The notes under the pieces were generated by a model, which worked only from the letters and a program-made list of their open reading frames with translations, made no database searches and was not told the DNA's origin. The translations under genes and the position numbers were made by a program. A stretch of DNA of 39,467 bases from a virus (Duplodnaviria > Heunggongvirae > Uroviricota > Caudoviricetes): IMG/VR virus record IMGVR_UViG_2706794683_000014; one strand, written 5' to 3'. Positions 1,342 through 37,886 of the stretch are shown here, one piece after another (position 1 is the stretch's first letter; each line of letters begins with the position of its first letter).

Positions 1342-4300
1342 TTAACATTCCCCCATCACGTCGCATATTTAACAGATTGCCCTGCACCCGCTGATCAACC
1401 ATCCCCATAAGTGCTTTTATTGCCTGAGGGCCAATCTCTCCATTCTGGCCGTCATTTTGAATAGTGATTTGGTATACAGGGGCATAGGTAATATCTCCGC
1501 CTCCATTACCACTTTTACTATTAATAGCTCTGACACCAAGAGAACCATCGGAAGTTCGTGTTAATGGCATAATGGCTTCCGGTCCAGCCTCACCAAAAAC
1601 ACCAGCCCCTTTTGCAAAAGCAAAAAATTGCGGGGAATCATAAATACCGTTCGAATACGTGCTCAATGACGGAGACTCATAAACACCGCCCTTTGCATTC
1701 GGAATAAATTTACTAATAGCACTCCCGATAGTTCCTAAAATCCCCCCAGAAGAACTGTTACTAATGCTGTCGAAAATCCCAGTAATTGAAGCCTTTAATG
1801 CTATTCGACTAAGATCCGAAATCACGGAAGTAGCGAAAGAACGAAAATTTGCCTTGCCTGTCGTGACAAAATCACCCAGCGCATCGGTCATCCCATCAAA
1901 CATCTGAGTCGTGGTTGATTTTATCTGCTCACTGATATCCTTAGTGTCATCCAGCCAGTTATTGAATCCCTGGGAGGCACCACTAACCCAGTCTCCTGCC
2001 TGAATATCGAGCTGCTCGTTTTTCTGTCTGACAATTTCTTTTTCCCGTTCCAGAGCATCATTCAGAGCCTGCATTTTCTCTTGAAAAACATGATCTGACA
2101 TTCCACGGGATTTATCTGCATAGTCACGTTCAAGTTGCAGACGCTGATTGTTATATCCATGTTCAATCCGCAGTAATTCCTGCTGGCGTTGCTGATTTTT
2201 ATCGCCAACCCCATAACCAGCAATCTGAATATCATACCCCTGCTGACGATTATCAATCGAAGCCTGCAATGAATCACGCCATGCTGTTATTTCGGCGGAT
2301 TCCTTGATTAGCCTGTTATTTTTTTCAATCGCAACATTTTTCTCCATCAACGTGGTTATTTCTTCCCGGTGTAAGAGAAGCGATTTCTGATCCTGGGTTA
2401 ATTTCGATGATGGTCGTGACTCTAGGTCGGCAATCCGCTGACGCCACTTAACCAGTTCCTGTTCAGAGGAACTTAATTTAACGGTCAACTCAGCTTGTGA
2501 ACTTAGTAACGCATTCTGTTGATTCAGATGATCAATCATTCGTTGGGCTGCATCATCAGAATAACCTTTCGCCTTTGGTTGCTTTGGATCTTTATAACGC
2601 TCATTTATTTGAGCGATAAGATTATTATATTCTTCCTTTGAATACTGATTCTTTAGCTTTTCCAGTTTTGCAAGTTCACTAGCTCTCTGCTGCTCCCGGG
2701 TCTGATATTGTTTTGAAAAGGCATCTGCTCTCTGTCTGAGTTCAATTCCTTCCTGTTGTCGCTTGTTGTAATCGTTTATTGATGAATTTAGTACGTCCTG
2801 AGCAATTTTTTCTGCTTGAAGTACGCCCAATTGCTGCTTTAATCGTGCCAGCCTTTTATTTTGAGCTCCGCCATCTCCAATGCCACCTAACCCGAAAACT
2901 CCGGGTCGGGTATTTTTTTCTATTTCATCAATTTGACGGAGAACATCTGAGATTTTTTGATCAAGGGAGGCCTCACGGCCAATATCCAGCATGGAATCCC
3001 ATGCCCATTTTGCGGAGTCTGCGACAGCTTTCCATGCAGTCTCAAGATAACCAAGATTTTCTTTAATCTGGTTGGTGCGCTGGATCATTGAGGATGAGTA
3101 TTCTTCTGTCGCAATGCGGGCGGCCTCCTGCTGGTTCCCTTCATCCTGTAGCGCCTTAATCTGGTTATAAGTCGCAAGTGTCAGAAAATGGTACTGATCA
3201 TTAAGTTTTGATATGGCACTGACAGGATCCTTTGCAATTTCATTGAAGTCATTAACCAGTTGTTCGGTTGATATTCCTGTTACTTCGCTCGTTTTTACTA
3301 TCGCTGTCGTCACTTGCTCCAGCGAACTGCTCGCTACCTTTCCCGAACGCACAAGCTGATTTAATACTGCCGCCGCAGCACCAGTTGTCGAATCAGCCGC
3401 ATTCCCGGCACGTTGAGCTATATCGCCCAATTGCCCGCTGGTTGTCCCCAACTGATTTCCGGTAAGAATAAGAGATTTATTAAATTCGTCCTGCTCCTGA
3501 GAGCCTTTATAGTAAGCCAGTCCTAAGACCCCAACGGCTGCTGCGGCCAGGGTAAAAGGATTAATTAATCCCAGCACATAAGAACCTACACCTTTGATCG
3601 CCGGGCCAATCCCACCGAACATATCTTTTAGCTGGCCGCCCTGCTGCATTAACACCATAAATGGCGACTGACCAGTGGACAACCCAACAACAATATCCGT
3701 CATTTGTACAGGCAACATGCGCATAGCAAAAGCCGTTTGTTTTGCCGACATTCCGGTTTTGCTTAATTGTGATTGAGTAACCTCAAGCTCACTCCGCATA
3801 GCACGAAGTTTTCCAGAAAGCTCCTCATACATTTCAGGAGAAAGCATCCCCTTAGCTTTTGCTTCATTGAGCTGTTTCTGTTGTTCTACCAGACGATTAA
3901 AAGCAGTTCCGACAGGATCAAGTTGAGCAATCAGACGTTGCAAAGCAACAACCTGTTCATCATGCGCTTTTGCTGCTTCTCGCTCTGCCTGAGCCTCTCC
4001 GGTAAGCTCTCGCCGTGTTTCCTGTATTTTTCGGCTATAATTCTCAAACTGAGAACCATTTATTTTCCCGGATGCAAACGCAGCATTAAGTTCATCATGC
4101 TGTTGTTCAAGATTTCTTAGCGCCGCAGCCAGAGGGTCGATCTTGTCCAGCATTCTTTGAAAGGCCTGAGCCTGCGCTTCCTGCTGGGCGGCAGCAAGTT
4201 TTCCGGCCTTCTCGGCTTCTCTCTGCGCTTGCGCAACCCCGCTCAATTCCTCTGTGGTTTCATTAAGTTTACGGACAAGAAATTCATATTCTTCTTTATC

Positions 4301-10150: not shown

Positions 10151-10412
10151 NNNNNNNNNNNNNNNNNNNNNNNNNNNNNNNNNNNNNNNNNNNNNNNNNN
10201 NNNNNNNNNNNNNNNNNNNNNNNNNNNNNNNNNNNNNNNNNNNNNNNNNNNNNNNNNNNNNNNNNNNNNNNNNNNNNNNNNNNNNNNNNNNNNNNNNNNN
10301 NNNNNNNNNNNNNNNNNNNNNNNNNNNNNNNNNNNNNNNNNNNNNNNNNNNNNNNNNNNNNNNNNNNNNNNNNNNNNNNNNNNNNNNNNNNNNNNNNNNN
10401 NNNNNNNNNNNN
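10151..10412. other. Masked/undetermined sequence (262 N)
   Basis: Run of n in the input; interrupts the scaffold gene 5' region. Confidence 1.
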
Positions 10413-19403: not shown

Positions 19404-19855
19404 TGCTGACCCCACAAACAGATTTCNNNNNNNNNNNNNNNNNNNNNNNNNNNNNNNNNNNNNNNNNNNNNNNNNNNNNNNNNNNNNNNNNNNNNNNNNN
19501 NNNNNNNNNNNNNNNNNNNNNNNNNNNNNNNNNNNNNNNNNNNNNNNNNNNNNNNNNNNNNNNNNNNNNNNNNNNNNNNNNNNNNNNNNNNNNNNNNNNN
19601 NNNNNNNNNNNNNNNNNNNNNNNNNNNNNNNNNNNNNNNNNNNNNNNNNNNNNNNNNNNNNNNNNNNNNNNNNNNNNNNNNNNNNNNNNNNNNNNNNNNN
19701 NNNNNNNNNNNNNNNNNNNNNNNNNNNNNNNNNNNNNNNNNNNNNNNNNNNNCCAGACCATCGTTACCACTTGGGCCAGTGATTAACACTGATGCTATAG
19801 CAATTGCTCCGCCACCAATAGCAGCAGCAACGACTTTTCGTAATGATGGAGGCAT
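19400..19855 (-). CDS. Signal-anchor-release (SAR) endolysin, phage-21 R type; interior masked by N
   Basis: N-terminus [34 protein letters not shown] and C-terminus EICLWGQQ match recalled phage 21 lysozyme; the same frame stays open across the N run. Confidence 0.75.
19427..19752. other. Masked/undetermined sequence (326 N)
   Basis: Run of n in the input, inside the endolysin gene. Confidence 1.
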
Positions 19856-22340: not shown

Positions 22341-22883
22341 TCAAGCCATTTTCTCAGCAAATGATTCACGCATGGGAATATATAGGGCATACTCAGCAAC
22401 AGCTAACCAATTAGCAATCCGTTTTTCGCATGTGCTAAAACACCACTCTGGGTGTGCATCATTTAGCAATTCAGCCATTTTGCGCTTAGTCATCCCCCGC
22501 CCTTCATAGCGTTGCCGGAGAATGCAAATCAATCCTGGATGCTCTGCCAGCACCTCACTTATGACTCGATCAATACATAACGCCTCTGCATCAGTACAAT
22601 GCGCCAGCCAGCTCTTTTGCTTGCCGTTGATCATCTCTCGCAAAAACGCTTCCAGCTCAGCTTTCTCTATTCCCGCTTTTTTCATTCTGCGCAGGGCTTC
22701 ATTAATGGCTGTTTTCGTCAGTTTTTTGGATGCCAACAACTGATTGAACATATTCCCTGACCTGCCACCGCCAATATACGACCAGCGCCCCCACATACGT
22801 AGTTTTCCCTGAATCCAGACACTTTCCAGCGTGGTGAGGCGAAGGTGTTCTCCGCTTTTTCCTGTATTCGTTGGGTAAATCAT
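22341..22883 (-). CDS. Late-gene antiterminator Q-like protein
   Basis: 180 aa ORF immediately upstream of the promoter/terminator pair and the lysis genes; tryptophan-rich motif WIQGKLRMWGRW reminiscent of Q-family proteins. Confidence 0.55.
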   Translation of the reverse strand: MIYPTNTGKSGEHLRLTTLESVWIQGKLRMWGRWSYIGGGRSGNMFNQLLASKKLTKTAINEALRRMKKAGIEKAELEAFLREMINGKQKSWLAHCTDAEALCIDRVISEVLAEHPGLICILRQRYEGRGMTKRKMAELLNDAHPEWCFSTCEKRIANWLAVAEYALYIPMRESFAEKMA

Positions 22884-23170
22884 AAATGACCTTTCTTTCT
22901 CCAGATTTCTTGTGTGCGAAAAACCCCTTCAGCATGCATCAGGCGCAATTCTTCTTTGGTGTAATCGCTGGTTTTTACCCGCCCGTCGATTAGATCGTGG
23001 CATGAGCTACAGGCTATCGCCGCCTGCATATCATGTGGTTTTGTCGCTGTTCCGCACGTCCCCGCCAGCCTGTAATGCGCCAGCACAGAGGTTTCGGGAT
23101 TGTGATTGCAGTAGCCAGGGATTCTGATCTGGCACATCTGGCCTTTAGCCGCTTTACGTAAATTCACCAT
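22880..23170 (-). CDS. Cysteine-rich nin-region protein (DUF1364 / YbcO-like, probably zinc-binding)
   Basis: 96 aa ORF with several spaced cysteines and histidines (C..C...C...CSSCH); position just upstream of Q; family name from memory. Confidence 0.5.
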   Translation of the reverse strand: MVNLRKAAKGQMCQIRIPGYCNHNPETSVLAHYRLAGTCGTATKPHDMQAAIACSSCHDLIDGRVKTSDYTKEELRLMHAEGVFRTQEIWRKKGHL

Positions 23171-23769
23171 TACGCAAACTCCAGTAGTTGTGCGGCCACA
23201 TTTTCAACTTCCTCCTGAGAGGAGAATTTACGGAACAGAATCCAGTTCCACAGCACATTCAGTACAGATTTATAAACCTGCTGAAACTCGACTTCGTCCA
23301 TATTCGCAAAAGCGATGGATTTTGCCCGACGCCCACGGCTACCGTCCGGATAAATATGCTCGGTGTAAAATCCGGCCTGAATGGTTACCCACTCGCGGAA
23401 AGCCTCAAACGACTTTAGCAACGCCGTATCCCGGGTTCTACGAGTCGCAACGGTGTTAAGGTATTGCTCTGCGGCATCACTCAGGGCTGGCGTGTGTTCC
23501 CGACCAACTGATTCGCACAGGTAATCAACGAAACCAGACAGCAGTTCTCGTTCGCGAGGCGTGATCGCCCCACCGACCGGAGTCCAGTAATCGAATCCCA
23601 GTTGCAGGAGTTTGAAAAAACGCTTGTGGAATGCGTAGTTACGCACACGCTTAAAGTCTGCGTGTATCCACTCACCTATTTTGATTTGATGCAGAAAATC
23701 GCAACTCTCCGGCGTCGCCGGGAGAAGTAAACCAGAAGAGGTTTGTTTGACCAGTTGTATATGCGCCAT
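23170..23769 (-). CDS. Conserved lambdoid nin-region protein (DUF1367-like)
   Basis: 199 aa ORF translationally coupled to the downstream gene; family name from memory only. Confidence 0.45.
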   Translation of the reverse strand: MAHIQLVKQTSSGLLLPATPESCDFLHQIKIGEWIHADFKRVRNYAFHKRFFKLLQLGFDYWTPVGGAITPRERELLSGFVDYLCESVGREHTPALSDAAEQYLNTVATRRTRDTALLKSFEAFREWVTIQAGFYTEHIYPDGSRGRRAKSIAFANMDEVEFQQVYKSVLNVLWNWILFRKFSSQEEVENVAAQLLEFA

Positions 23770-24049
23770 TTCTCAATCTCTCGATGGCGCAGCGCAGCAG
23801 ATGCCAGTTGTTCAGGCTGACGAATAAAGTATAAATAAACTGGCTATGGTGTAAAGCCCCACATAGCATGAACAAACACTACATATCAAATAGCTGGTAC
23901 AAGGATAGAAATACGACACTTATTATTAAAAACGATTAGATAAATTACATTTTAATGTTATGCAAAAGTTCTTTTTTATCATAACATTTCAATAAAAGCA
24001 TTACAGATGCAATCATCCCGTCATCATCAATTATTTAAGGTGGTTAAAC

Positions 24050-24136
24050 ATGGAAAATAACAAGTTCGCACATCTCGCTCCTTTTTTATCCGTAATCCTT
24101 TTCGCTTGTTGTTTTATATGGGCATTATTTTTATAA
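24050..24136 (+). CDS. Possible small hydrophobic protein (28 aa)
   Basis: AAGGTGG Shine-Dalgarno 7 nt before the ATG; MENNKFAHLAPFLSVILFACCFIWALFL is a single predicted transmembrane helix; lies in an AT-rich intergenic stretch. Confidence 0.25.
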   Translation: MENNKFAHLAPFLSVILFACCFIWALFL

Positions 24137-24527
24137 AGTAGCCACATGATAAGTTGCTGGAATCATATTTCCCACTCAAGTCATTAACATTTGATAAGAT
24201 ATATCTAAAAGGACGCCTTTACATTATTTATGCGTATATAATTTATTTATATACACAGTAAAGGTATCCTGGGAAAATATTTATCGTTAAAAAATACATC
24301 ATAAATAATTAAGCTGAAATTTCAGAACACAACTAATACACACAATAAGGTTCAGTAACAGTAATCTATGTGGACTACATCGAGATTTTTTGATTAAACT
24401 TTAATAACTTATTCCTAACACACAGAATGCATAAACTAAAAGTAAAACAAATAGTTATACGAAAAACAACCATATTTATTCTATCTTCTCCTCTAATCAA
24501 CATATCAATTATGTGTTTCATAACAGC

Positions 24528-24569
24528 TTGACATAACCCTCCAAAAGATGCATTTTTAATGCATGTTTT
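24528..24569 (+). promoter_or_regulatory. Promoter with an NsrR-like inverted-repeat operator upstream of the yeaR-like gene
   Basis: Perfect TTGACA at 24528..24533, then AAGATGCATTT-T-TAATGCATGTT (24545..24567), a 9/11-matching inverted repeat resembling the recalled NsrR consensus. Confidence 0.4.
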
Positions 24570-24582
24570 GGAGGAGGTGGTT

Positions 24583-24921
24583 ATGACACACAAGAGAATT
24601 CCTAAAGATTGGGTAATCAAACGCTCAACTCCGTTCTTCACAAAAGAGAACGTACCTTCAGCGTTATTAACACATCATAATACAGCAGCAGGTGTTTTTG
24701 GGCAGTTGTGCGTAATGGAAGGCACTGTAACATATTATGGTTTTACTGATGAGAATGCTACTGAACCGGAGATAAAAGTAGTCATTAATGCTGGCGCTTT
24801 TGCAACAAGCCCACCACAATACTGGCACCGTGTTGAACTAAGCGATGATGCTCAGTTTAATATTAACTTTTGGGTCGCTCCAGACTTTTCGGGCGAAAAA
24901 GTCTATAGCACCAAAAAATAG
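24583..24921 (+). CDS. YeaR-like protein (DUF1971 family)
   Basis: GGAGGAGG Shine-Dalgarno before the ATG at 24583; 112 aa product resembles recalled E. coli YeaR; opposite strand to the phage operons; AT-rich. Confidence 0.65.
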   Translation: MTHKRIPKDWVIKRSTPFFTKENVPSALLTHHNTAAGVFGQLCVMEGTVTYYGFTDENATEPEIKVVINAGAFATSPPQYWHRVELSDDAQFNINFWVAPDFSGEKVYSTKK

Positions 24922-24950
24922 ATGATCATATTAAAAATGCTTTAACAGTC

Positions 24951-24988
24951 AGACCCGGCAGGGCTATCCCCGACGGGTCTCATTTTTG
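24951..24988 (+). terminator. Putative intrinsic terminator after the yeaR-like gene
   Basis: GACCCG...CGGGTC stem followed by TCATTTTTG. Confidence 0.4.
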
Positions 24989-25541
24989 TAAATATATTGG
25001 TTCTACATTGACAGGAGACTTCAACCATAAGAAGTAATCTGAATACTTGAGCAATAAATTTACTTAAGATTAATGAGCGCACCTTGCCGGACAAAGATAA
25101 ACCAAGGTAACACCTTTTTTCTAGCCAGTATGTAATCAATCAGAAAGCCGCTCCATAAGAACAACAGCAAGACAATAAATTGCCATTACAGCCGCAATAG
25201 CCAGCGCACATTTGAGAACCAGCACGACAACCCCCTGTATTAGACGCACACCAGTCCTGATAAATATGAGGCTGTCTCGTCAGTGATTCAATACAACTAT
25301 TGGGTATAGTTTCTGTGATTTTATTCTGTAGAAATGGAACACAACAACCAGTCACCACCAGCACTTCCTTAAATGCTCTAAGTCAGAAACAAGCCAACAT
25401 TTTAGTCCGCTTTGAGCGATCTGCAGACATTGCTAGCAGCCTTCTGTGTGAATTCTCAGGGAGCAGGTCGGCATAGCATCACGTTGAGGCTCTTACCCTA
25501 CTTGTTCACACCAACCCTAACTCCACAGACTGATTCATAAA

Positions 25542-26543
25542 TTAGTAATCTGCGTGTTTCGCACTTTTCAGAAATGCTTTCATATTTTCATTAGGTCGCT
25601 CAATTTCGAAGTTACTTCCATATAACTCTTGTAATTTTGGCCATAACTTACTTAATAACCCTCTCCTGCGATAAAATGGATGTATCCAAACGGTAGATAG
25701 GTACGGAGAATTTGCATTTGAATTGTTTATTGTGACCAGCCCAACTAAACATTGTCGATAACCACTATTATCCATTGATTGTATTTCTTCGACGAATGGA
25801 TACGCGATTACATCAGTCCAACCATGATCGGTTGTATCCCATTGCATTCCGTCATGACATTCCTTCGACTGATAGCGGCGTAAAGCTACACACGCGAGCT
25901 TTTGCCAATCTGGAGAATTAATTGTGATCTCTTCATCGTATGACGCGCCTATTGGAGCGGGTATTGGTCTGATTAATCCAGCATGGCATTCATCATAGAA
26001 CTTCATGTTTCCCTCAGAAACGTTGTGTACGTTGGGTTGCTCCATGTGTGCGCCATTCAAAAATAGCTCTGATAGTAGTGTATCTACACTGTAATCTTTA
26101 TTGATTATTGTCGGCTTAGAGTTTTTCTTATTAAGGCCGCGAGTAACGATTTTTTGATCAATGTTAACAACATGGAATAATCCGTCGGGGAGGCTAGCGA
26201 ACCACGATGGGGCATCGGACCAGAATAGCATGCCTTTTGTACTTCTTAAGAGTTTAATTAAGTTAATACAAGCTTCTTCACTAGTCTTGCCGTTGATGCG
26301 AAGTATGTTAGGACTAAAGTAATATTCATCCATATCAGGGAATGCAGCTTCGCAAAACTCCTGTACATAATTTAGCACCTGGATTCTACAGAGATCATCA
26401 TAGCTGGTAATAACTAAGGGGGTATCTTCATTACTATTATGATTATCAATAATGCAATCTATAGCGAGACTTACTGCTTTGCGTATCACTTCAGTTGAAT
26501 CTAACGACTCTAAAAATTTTGTCTTTCGTGTGCGAATATCCAT
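25542..26543 (-). CDS. Hypothetical protein with a C-terminal GNAT acetyltransferase-like motif (cassette gene 2)
   Basis: 333 aa ORF; C-terminal ...LVGLVTINN...STVWIHPFYRRRGLLSKLWPKLQELYG resembles GNAT motif A; N-terminal ~220 aa unrecognised; AT-rich; starts 16 nt after the upstream gene stop. Confidence 0.6.
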   Translation of the reverse strand: MDIRTRKTKFLESLDSTEVIRKAVSLAIDCIIDNHNSNEDTPLVITSYDDLCRIQVLNYVQEFCEAAFPDMDEYYFSPNILRINGKTSEEACINLIKLLRSTKGMLFWSDAPSWFASLPDGLFHVVNIDQKIVTRGLNKKNSKPTIINKDYSVDTLLSELFLNGAHMEQPNVHNVSEGNMKFYDECHAGLIRPIPAPIGASYDEEITINSPDWQKLACVALRRYQSKECHDGMQWDTTDHGWTDVIAYPFVEEIQSMDNSGYRQCLVGLVTINNSNANSPYLSTVWIHPFYRRRGLLSKLWPKLQELYGSNFEIERPNENMKAFLKSAKHADY

Positions 26544-26558
26544 GTATGACCTGCGCTA

Positions 26559-27581
26559 TTAAAATTCATGAATGAACGGTTTGTCATCTGGTTGCAAAAT
26601 GGTGGTTTTATTCGTTGCTACATTTAAACTGTTGTAGAGCATAATTGCCAGGTTCGATGCATTTTCAATCAGCGTTTCAAGATCCTGGTCTGTAATCACT
26701 ACGAGGTTCCCTTCTTTATCCTTTCCACCACGATGCACTAAGTGATTTCGATTGAGGGTTGCCAATTCAATAGCTTCTATCGGACAGTCTTTTTGTACTT
26801 TTATATCGAATGTAGCTTCATAGCGGTCGATTACCTTTTTAGTGCTATGCCAGCTTGCACTGATCAAGTGTTCCTTGATTGACCTGATTAGCTCTCCCCT
26901 AATTTTCTCGATGGGTTCACCCTTGAAAGGCAACGCAGCAATATCTTTGCTTACTTTAAATTCAGTCTTACCTTTTTCTATACAATTGGCTATGTAGACA
27001 TCATCTTTCTCTATAGAATTAATGAATAGCTCAACATAAAGCGTTTCCAAAGCTGTAATAACATTCGTGTAGAGCAAACTAAGCAAGTGGTTTTTTTGCT
27101 GTTGTTCAGTTTTATCTTTTGCAAGTTTTTTTATTTTATCGATATTATCAATGAATTTTAAATACGGATTACCGGAAGACGTTACAGCGTCGTAGATATC
27201 ATCATCGTACCAATCATCTATATTATTTGAGTTTCCAGACCAGTCAAAACATTGTGTTTGTAATTCATCTACTAATTCCTCAATATACTCAGATTTAACA
27301 TATTGACCGAAGATGGATTGTAGTTCTTCGCTCGCATCATACGGCCCGCCATATATGTAAGCATAGCCACCTTCTCTACTTTCATACGGACAAGCATTTG
27401 CCGGATCTTCAAAGTTTTCAAAGAACCAGTTTTTCATTACTTCGAGTTGATCTTTTTTGCTTATGTATTTTAAAGATTTTAGTGGAACTTTCTTTCCATT
27501 AACCTCGAAAACAATTTTCACGATGTAACGCTCCCTTGTATCAATTGCGCAACTATTATACCACAGCGAAATACAGGGCAT
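26559..27581 (-). CDS. Hypothetical protein with an R-x4-H (HEPN-like) motif near the C-terminus (cassette gene 1)
   Basis: AAGGAGG Shine-Dalgarno 6 nt before the ATG at 27581 (MPCISLWYNSC...), 340 aa; C-terminal ATLNRNHLVHRGGKD contains R-x4-H; AT-rich; no recognisable phage-core homology. Confidence 0.6.
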   Translation of the reverse strand: MPCISLWYNSCAIDTRERYIVKIVFEVNGKKVPLKSLKYISKKDQLEVMKNWFFENFEDPANACPYESREGGYAYIYGGPYDASEELQSIFGQYVKSEYIEELVDELQTQCFDWSGNSNNIDDWYDDDIYDAVTSSGNPYLKFIDNIDKIKKLAKDKTEQQQKNHLLSLLYTNVITALETLYVELFINSIEKDDVYIANCIEKGKTEFKVSKDIAALPFKGEPIEKIRGELIRSIKEHLISASWHSTKKVIDRYEATFDIKVQKDCPIEAIELATLNRNHLVHRGGKDKEGNLVVITDQDLETLIENASNLAIMLYNSLNVATNKTTILQPDDKPFIHEF

Positions 27582-27796
27582 AACCTGCCTCCTTAAACTA
27601 ACATACCATGAGCCAGCAATGTCCGCTATTGGCACAAAGCGGACAACCACGCTAGCTCTCCCCTGTGCCAGAAAAATGTCAATTTACATATGAACTAATG
27701 CTCTTTGATCTAGTAACGTCTATAAATACCGAAGATTTCCTTGATAAAATGCCAGTACACGTTTCATAACTTCACTCTTCCGGCACTCGCGACAGA

Positions 27797-28156
27797 TTAT
27801 GTTCTGACGCCTGTCATAGCGGCGTATTTCTCCGTCTGGTAATGACCAGATAANNNNNNNNNNNNNNNNNNNNNNNNNNNNNNNNNNNNNNNNNNNNNNN
27901 NNNNNNNNNNNNNNNNNNNNNNNNNNNNNNNNNNNNNNNNNNNNNNNNNNNNNNNNNNNNNNNNNNNNNNNNNNNNNNNNNNNNNNNNNNNNNNNNNNNN
28001 NNNNNNNNNNNNNNNNNNNNNNNNNNNNNNNNNNNNNNNNNNNNNNNNNNNNNNNNNNNNNNNNNNNNNNNNNNNNNNNNNNNNNNNNNNNNNNNNNNNN
28101 NNNATTTTTTCACGCTCTTCCTGTGTAAAAACTTTTGCCATAAGCGCCTCCGGCAA
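27797..28156 (-). CDS. Hypothetical nin-region protein, interior masked by N
   Basis: Start overlaps the stop of the upstream gene (MPEALMAKVFTQEEREK...), C-terminus ...LSGHYQTEKYAAMTGVRT; frame continuity across the N run is assumed. Confidence 0.3.
   Translation of the reverse strand: MPEALMAKVFTQEEREKXXXXXXXXXXXXXXXXXXXXXXXXXXXXXXXXXXXXXXXXXXXXXXXXXXXXXXXXXXXXXXXXXXXXXXXXXXXXXXXXXXXXLSGHYQTEKYAAMTGVRT
27854..28103. other. Masked/undetermined sequence (250 N)
   Basis: Run of n in the input. Confidence 1.
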
Positions 28157-37636: not shown

Positions 37637-37886
37637 NNNNNNNNNNNNNNNNNNNNNNNNNNNNNNNNNNNNNNNNNNNNNNNNNNNNNNNNNNNNNNNN
37701 NNNNNNNNNNNNNNNNNNNNNNNNNNNNNNNNNNNNNNNNNNNNNNNNNNNNNNNNNNNNNNNNNNNNNNNNNNNNNNNNNNNNNNNNNNNNNNNNNNNN
37801 NNNNNNNNNNNNNNNNNNNNNNNNNNNNNNNNNNNNNNNNNNNNNNNNNNNNNNNNNNNNNNNNNNNNNNNNNNNNNNNNNNNNNN
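37637..37886. other. Masked/undetermined sequence (250 N)
   Basis: Run of n in the input; covers the ralR 3' part and the ydaC 5' part. Confidence 1.

Follow-up and report, generated by a model that had tools for sequence, protein, structure and literature searches.

Why a prophage should carry a single gene against the direction of all its neighbours, and what would switch that gene on, is the question raised by the viral record IMGVR_UViG_2706794683_000014 of IMG/VR (Caudoviricetes). The whole stretch of 39,467 nucleotides was analysed and is called the window here. On its plus strand lies a short gene for a protein of the DUF1971 family, preceded by an inverted repeat that resembles the binding site of NsrR, the nitric oxide (NO) sensor and repressor of the host. 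The gene is the sole convincing plus-strand open reading frame (ORF) between positions 24300 and 25200. It is antisense to its neighbours, which are all encoded on the minus strand, and the bin from 24001 to 25000 has a G+C content of 34.5%, which bears out the initial annotation of a gene running against its neighbours in an AT-rich accessory island. The gene is likely to be a moron (an independent, host-regulated cargo gene of lambdoid prophages, reviewed in PMC3594210) that encodes a DUF1971 protein of the type of Salmonella STM1808, under direct repression by NsrR of the host.

The putative operator was scored with a palindromic NsrR weight matrix, built from the 26 distinct CFT073 23-mers in Table 4 of Mehta et al. 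2015 (PMC5320621). The 23-mer AAGATGCATTTTTAATGCATGTT, arranged as AAGATGCATTT-T-TAATGCATGTT, reached 28.4 bits, with P = 3e-11 per position at the composition of E. coli and 1e-9 at a G+C content of 34%. This is far above the genomic background, and the resemblance to an NsrR site proposed from the letters alone was thus upheld by the matrix. Compared with the 26 published sites, themselves scored on their own matrix, the operator was second to ytfE alone (31.9 bits); hmp and yeaR scored 20.6 and 24.4 bits. The runner-up in the whole 39-kb window reached 13.8 bits, 14.6 bits lower. When a second matrix was made from only the 16 sites positive in ChIP-seq (chromatin immunoprecipitation and sequencing), the operator scored 26.8 bits (P = 2e-10) and the held-out sites of yeaR, ygbA and tehA scored 21–25 bits. 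The high score holds with either training set. The left half, AAGATGCATTT, is the same sequence as the best-scoring half-site published for ytfE and hmp. The box spans the inferred −10 hexamer, which occupies box positions 7–12, and the inferred transcription start site.

The promoters of the orthologues were compared at 80 loci, with one genome per species, by scanning, with the same matrix, 150 bp of sequence before each orthologue. Nearly all of the 50-plus orthologues from Enterobacteriaceae showed an NsrR box of 24–31 bits beginning 38–50 bp before the ATG. These boxes were found in Kluyvera, Leclercia, Silvania, Pseudescherichia, Buttiauxella, Enterobacter, Pantoea, Citrobacter, Salmonella, Klebsiella, Raoultella, Yokenella and Phytobacter. 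The exceptions were one Leclercia locus with a shift of 1 bp (12.3 bits) and the Salmonella sites, which are weaker (21–24 bits). The 99th percentile of the background, taken from 3707 windows of 153 bp from the same loci, was 11.1 bits. A common layout is seen across the genera, with a −35 hexamer, a spacer of 17 bp and the sequence (T/C)AT(A/T)TT at box positions 7–12. The −35 and −10 hexamers are TTTACA and TATTTT in Kluyvera and Leclercia, TTGACG and CATATT in Klebsiella and Raoultella, and TTGACA and CATTTT in the prophage of the window; the −10 equivalent of Citrobacter and Salmonella is TATATT. This shared arrangement is the strongest argument that the prophage carries a real NsrR operator, at a position from which bound NsrR would occlude the promoter. 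The arrangement further indicates that promoter, operator and gene moved as a single piece.

The features of the locus are collected in Table 1. Both the TTGACA and the terminator that had been attributed to the gene as its own are present, and the −35 hexamer is invariant in 16 of 16 prophage haplotypes. The hairpin behind the gene has a G+C-rich stem (24951–24957 pairing with 24974–24980), followed by TTTTT at 24983–24987, with a predicted folding energy of −19.4 kcal/mol (z = −2.5). A generic scan, requiring four of six matches per hexamer and a loop of at most 8 nt, called neither a promoter nor a terminator on the plus strand. The promoter was not called because only three of the six −10 bases match, and the terminator was not listed because its loop is long. 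Given the conservation in the orthologues and the RNA fold, these misses were judged to be limits of the thresholds and not the absence of the elements. An alternative start at 24559, giving an ORF of 120 codons, was rejected, as the orthologues and the chain of PDB entry 3DL3 begin at the equivalent of 24583 and the Shine-Dalgarno sequence precedes that position.

Table 1. Positions of the cassette elements and flanking genes in the window.
Feature	Position	Strand	Basis and remarks
−35 hexamer TTGACA	24528..24533	+	Sequence; aligns with TTTACA/TTGACG of chromosomal orthologues
Extended near-perfect palindrome, 37 bp	24538..24574	.	Repeat search; encloses the operator and runs into the Shine-Dalgarno sequence as far as its first GGAGG
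Predicted NsrR-type 11-1-11 operator	24545..24567	.	Weight matrix
Inferred −10 hexamer CATTTT	24551..24556	+	17 bp after the −35 hexamer, in the left half of the NsrR box
Shine-Dalgarno sequence GGAGGAGG	24570..24577	+	5 nt before the ATG; GGAGG conserved in orthologues
Coding sequence, DUF1971 protein of 112 amino acids, STM1808/3DL3 subfamily	24583..24921	+	Pfam, PDB and orthologue matches; ORF of 339 nt
Intrinsic-terminator-like hairpin and T-run	24951..24987	+	AGACCCG...CGGGTCT; RNA fold
Flanking phage genes: DUF1133/Q-like antiterminator, YbcO, DUF1367	22341..23769	−	Pfam matches; constant neighbours of the cassette
Two hypothetical flanking genes	25542..27650	−	Open reading frames

The protein matched the Pfam profile PF09313 (DUF1971) over positions 1–80 of 80 (E = 2.3e-26; 92 bits, the cut-off being 23.1), which confirms the family assignment made in the initial annotation. 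The RefSeq entry is WP_000149055.1. Its closest solved structure is PDB 3DL3 from Vibrio fischeri (E = 3.5e-59, residues 1–111), and through this structure the fold may be regarded as known; we read it as presumably cupin-like. The match with E. coli YeaR (PDB 3BB6) was much weaker (E = 1.6e-24), at about 40% identity (40.5–41.4% by tblastn). By contrast, identity was 82% with the orthologue of Kluyvera, 79–81% with those of Klebsiella, Citrobacter and Salmonella (79.5% for Salmonella) and 75–80% with those of Aliivibrio, Vibrio, Photobacterium and Shewanella. By these similarities the protein belongs to a highly conserved subfamily of stand-alone DUF1971 proteins of about 112 amino acids, the STM1808 type. 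The earlier label ‘YeaR-like’ holds for the family but not for orthology: besides the low identity, no yoaG follows the gene, no plus-strand ORF being present from the stop codon to the terminator, and the YeaR orthologue was rejected in favour of the STM1808 type.

In Salmonella the gene order around the orthologue is nhaB-dsbB-DUF1971, and the records call the product just ‘cytoplasmic protein/DUF1971’. We take this order to correspond to STM1806-1807-1808 in the numbering of strain LT2, which would make the Salmonella comparator STM1808. RefSeq labels of identical or near-identical copies of the prophage protein vary between ‘DUF1971 domain-containing protein’ and ‘TehB family protein’. The latter misleads, as the protein has no methyltransferase domain. 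TehB, the tellurite-resistance methyltransferase, was rejected as an identification: the NCBIfam TehB model gave 49 bits against a cut-off of 303, over its N-terminal DUF1971 part only, and the protein has 112 amino acids.

The distribution of the gene points to mobile cargo. In a blastn search centred on the gene, 464 of 5426 complete E. coli genomes (about 9%) were positive, always with at least 90% identity. No chromosomal copy of lower identity was found in these 5426 genomes, the subfamily occurring there only in prophage context. A query of 901 bp that included the flanks matched 1359 genomes, against 464 for the gene-centred query. In six of six sampled contexts the gene adjoined DUF1367-YbcO-DUF1133, and on the far side the neighbours differed by genome (hypothetical genes, QueH, Hok/Gef with KilA-N, or an MFS transporter). 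Among 50,697 phage records the gene was present in only three, those of the induced E. coli phages vB_EcoS-666R9, 673R7 and 613R10; another 37 viral contigs with the gene were found in IMG/VR. Alleles of the 666R9/AR0372 type are homologous to the window only as far as the stop codon, beyond which a different hairpin and T-run are found, and the unit is therefore considered to behave as a moron. The characters of a moron that were found are promoter and terminator elements of its own, the opposite strand, a low G+C content at third codon positions (GC3), the junction at the stop codon and the variable neighbours on the far side. GC3 of the gene is 34.5%, compared with 47.5–53.6% for its neighbours on the Q side and 54–67% for the enterobacterial orthologues. 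Recent capture from Kluyvera, which has the highest protein identity, or from another enterobacterial chromosome was judged unlikely because GC3 lies so far below that of the orthologues.

Natural variation was surveyed in 44 prophage-type loci (L001–L007, L087–L121 and L124 among them), which fall into 16 haplotypes. Between the −35 hexamer and the Shine-Dalgarno sequence (24534–24574), 16 of the 41 positions are variable, against 6.5% of the coding sequence (Fisher P = 1e-7); further upstream the figure is 9.4%. In the coding sequence, 14 of the 22 variable positions are third-codon positions, a bias that was counted as evidence for purifying selection. Ten operator variants were distinguished and all of them scored between 17.7 and 29.7 bits. 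The top allele (29.7 bits) is that of L123, a divergent viral contig of 78% identity with its box 48 bp from the ATG; without it the range is 17.7–29.2 bits. The allele of the window is among the strongest. With the ChIP-only matrix the five main alleles had P values between 2e-10 and 5e-7. The variable positions are symmetric about the dyad, and some changes are compensatory, such as CCTC...GAGG via ...GATG to CATC...GATG. The core of the right half-site is essentially invariant among the alleles.

The inverted repeat that had been described as 11-1-11 is indeed present, but it is longer than that description. Its arms are 17 nt each (24538–24554 and 24558–24574) with one mismatch, and as RNA it has a predicted folding energy of −22.9 kcal/mol. 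Compensatory changes keep this extension in some prophage alleles, not in all. In Citrobacter (L030, L031, L033, L036, L041, L047, L051, L053 and L055), Yokenella (L064) and Raoultella planticola (L075), the NsrR box also lies inside a palindrome, of about 41 bp with about 20 nt per arm, located at about 3950–3990 of each locus. The outer arms of these palindromes differ by species and are compensated (GGCATCTAT/ATAGATGCC, GGCATTTAT/ATAAATGCC and GGCACCTAT/ATAGGTGCC). The extended arms are absent in the orthologues of Kluyvera, Leclercia and Klebsiella. On average the pairing does exceed that of a shuffled-partner control (4.1 against 3.2 pairs in nine positions), but a few lineages account for the excess, and the extended palindrome was rejected as a family-wide feature. 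Template-switch correction of quasi-palindromes can yield compensatory changes without selection. The compensated changes may reflect selection, be it for operator tuning or for DNA or RNA structure, or such template-switch mutation.

Under the proposed moron model, a holo-NsrR dimer would sit on the box when NO is absent and would block RNA polymerase at the −10 hexamer and the start site. NO would damage the Fe-S cluster of NsrR, the repressor would leave the DNA and the gene would be transcribed in the lysogen, independently of the lytic programme of the phage and antisense to it. The terminator would halt the transcript before the downstream phage genes. By analogy with STM1808 of Salmonella, the protein would then aid growth under nitrosative stress, and the prophage would have added a new member to the NsrR regulon of its host by way of the host's own regulator. 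The wiring into this regulon, as originally put forward, is backed by the site score and the boxes of the orthologues. The accompanying statement that the gene is expressed in the lysogen is better worded as probably repressed until NO inactivates NsrR.

Several observations weigh against this model. Nowhere is the locus more polymorphic than in the operator, possibly as a result of relaxed constraint, and the commonest sampled allele, AACACGCATTTATAATGCATGTT, scores 20.2 bits with a degraded left half-site, AACACGCATTT. CATTTT, with its three matching bases, is a weak −10 hexamer, and the start site is placed by position. In some alleles the palindrome is longer than NsrR needs, a hint that it may have a further role or another one. 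Orthologues from Vibrionaceae are mostly without an NsrR box in the 150 bp upstream of the ATG, as are those from Shewanella (L035, L040, L048, L052, L057 and L063 are among these loci); two Photobacterium loci (L060 and L078) do carry one. To judge from these upstream regions, different families evidently regulate this very conserved protein in different ways. In the literature that was searched, neither NsrR binding nor NO induction has been reported for the prophage copy.

The polymorphism between the −35 hexamer and the Shine-Dalgarno sequence would also fit a decaying relic, in which an ancestral NsrR box came under no further selection once in the prophage and expression is now constitutive, leaky or silent. 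The modest score of the commonest allele and of one other allele (17.7 bits) agrees with this, as does the presence in most alleles of a TATAAT that is shifted 4 bp from the canonical spacing. However, the scores of all alleles exceed the background by far and fall within the ChIP-validated range (13–31 bits), there is essentially no variation in the right half-site core or the −35 hexamer, symmetric and compensatory changes about the dyad do not resemble random decay, and the window allele is nearly consensus. We therefore regard decay as unlikely. Alternatively, the main role of the palindrome might be that of a structure in DNA or RNA, or of a binding site for another protein, the resemblance to an NsrR site being secondary. 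In transcripts started upstream it could fold into an RNA hairpin and so sequester the Shine-Dalgarno sequence, or it could be the site of a different dimeric regulator. The 17-nt arms, which include CCTCC and GGAGG, the stability of the predicted hairpin, and the compensation outside the 23-bp box, both in prophage alleles (CCTC/GAGG to CATC/GATG) and in the Citrobacter orthologues, speak for such a role. Yet the 23-bp NsrR core is universal, whereas other prophage alleles and the orthologues of Kluyvera, Leclercia and Klebsiella are without the extension; no second copy of the motif occurs in the phage, the immunity region included; and, with the inferred start inside the palindrome, the native transcript would be unable to fold into the hairpin. 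The compensatory changes, moreover, could be produced by template switching without selection. This explanation seems to us somewhat less probable again than decay.

A chance inverted repeat in AT-rich DNA, lying before an unregulated or unexpressed ORF, has in its favour the composition of the upstream region (31% G+C) and the silence of the generic promoter scan. The significance of the site, about 1e-9 even at 34% G+C, the equivalent sites kept across many genera and an ORF that is intact and conserved in 464 genomes leave it hardly any probability, and the site score together with the orthologue scan has already effectively refuted it. A bolder extension of NsrR control concerns the lytic decision. 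The cassette lies between the replication genes and the Q-like antiterminator, head-on to the phage early transcript that crosses it. Because of this head-on position, the polymorphism hot spot in the operator and the compensated extensions of the palindrome, one may speculate that derepression by NO, or NsrR acting as a roadblock, modulates read-through to Q and so couples NO sensing to lysis, the operator alleles then setting different thresholds. We consider this coupling, and the thresholds that would go with it, very improbable.

The window is a Rac-type lambdoid prophage with its integrase at ttcA. The ttcA element of E. coli NCTC10444 is 100% identical to the window across 97% of 24.5 kb. 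It comprises intR, xisR, recET, kilR, sieB, ydaS/T-like regulators, ydaUV, DUF1627, DUF977, two hypothetical genes, the DUF1971 gene, DUF1367, YbcO, DUF1133/Q-like, lysis genes, trkG and terminase. A non-coding spacer of about 760 bp with 31% G+C (23770–24527) separates DUF1367 from the cassette promoter and is conserved among the alleles; it contains short ORFs only and no Rfam match. In an Rfam search of 23600–25700, the sole match was a sub-threshold one of a miRNA family on the palindrome (22 bits against a gathering score of 100), which was judged spurious. Both accessory genes on the other side of the cassette are AT-rich. One encodes a protein of 363 amino acids with a weak match to a HEPN/RES N-terminal domain and an RNHLVH motif, the other a protein of 333 amino acids with a sub-threshold GNAT match at its C-terminus. 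They may form a toxin- or defence-like pair. PADLOC gave no match for the DUF1971 protein and its two neighbours, which leaves a defence-system reading without support. The window contains four runs of N of 250–326 nt each (10151–10412, 19427–19752, 27854–28103 and 37637–37886). ORFs and scans across these runs are unreliable; none of them touches the locus described here.

Taken on its sequence, the cassette probably gives the host an extra NO-inducible stress protein. If so, a temperate phage has extended a stress regulon of its host by bringing in a gene that comes with an operator for the host sensor, and encodes no regulator for it. An NO-inducible protein of the STM1808 type, otherwise missing in the species, would then be present in about 9% of complete E. 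coli genomes and in Shigella; its counterpart in Salmonella has been associated with virulence and with resistance to nitrosative stress. The natural operator alleles (17.7–29.2 bits, and 29.7 bits for L123) could be used to study how the strength of an NsrR site relates to the threshold of induction.

Among the nearest known systems is STM1808, a member of the NsrR regulon of Salmonella with a role in virulence (PMC7527575; PMC7082413). With the Salmonella orthologue taken as STM1808, the two genes are alike in subfamily (79% identity), length (112–113 amino acids) and monocistronic arrangement, and the Salmonella loci likewise have an NsrR box (21–24 bits), about 50 bp before the ATG, with the −10 hexamer inside it. 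They differ in that STM1808 is a chromosomal core gene behind nhaB-dsbB whereas the copy described here lies in a prophage, antisense to phage genes; in GC3 (56% for STM1808 against 34.5%); and in the operator, which is closer to consensus in the prophage. Work by Karlinsey et al. in 2012 reportedly connected STM1808 with NO sensitivity, virulence and zinc binding.

The yeaR-yoaG operon of E. coli, regulated by NsrR and NarL, shares the DUF1971 domain and an NsrR box with the prophage gene; it differs in the identity of about 40%, in the presence of yoaG and in a box of 24.4 bits against 28.4 bits here. No NarL site was seen near the prophage gene by eye, no formal search being made. NsrR is known to repress through 11-1-11 sites and to control yeaR, with AAATGGTATTTAAAATGCAAATT as the published box (PMC5320621). 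The closest structure, 3DL3, is annotated as ‘tellurite resistance protein B’ of V. fischeri and comes from a family, the Vibrionaceae, in which the box is mostly lacking. TehB of Haemophilus influenzae (PDB 3M70) has a homologous N-terminal DUF1971 domain (E = 5e-11), fused to an S-adenosylmethionine (SAM) methyltransferase domain that the prophage protein does not have.

Literature searches, which paired NsrR with DUF1971 and with prophages or morons and included the RefSeq accessions, yielded neither a description of this locus nor a published NsrR-controlled prophage gene. NsrR control of DUF1971 genes is known from yeaR and STM1808, and the regulation is of a known kind without a new mechanism; a phage-borne copy with its operator appears to be unreported in the literature covered. 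The cassette resembles other morons in its own promoter and terminator, its opposite orientation, its atypical composition, its place between conserved phage modules and its presence in some related prophages only. Unlike in other morons, the control element here would be a near-consensus operator for a specific stress sensor of the host, NsrR.

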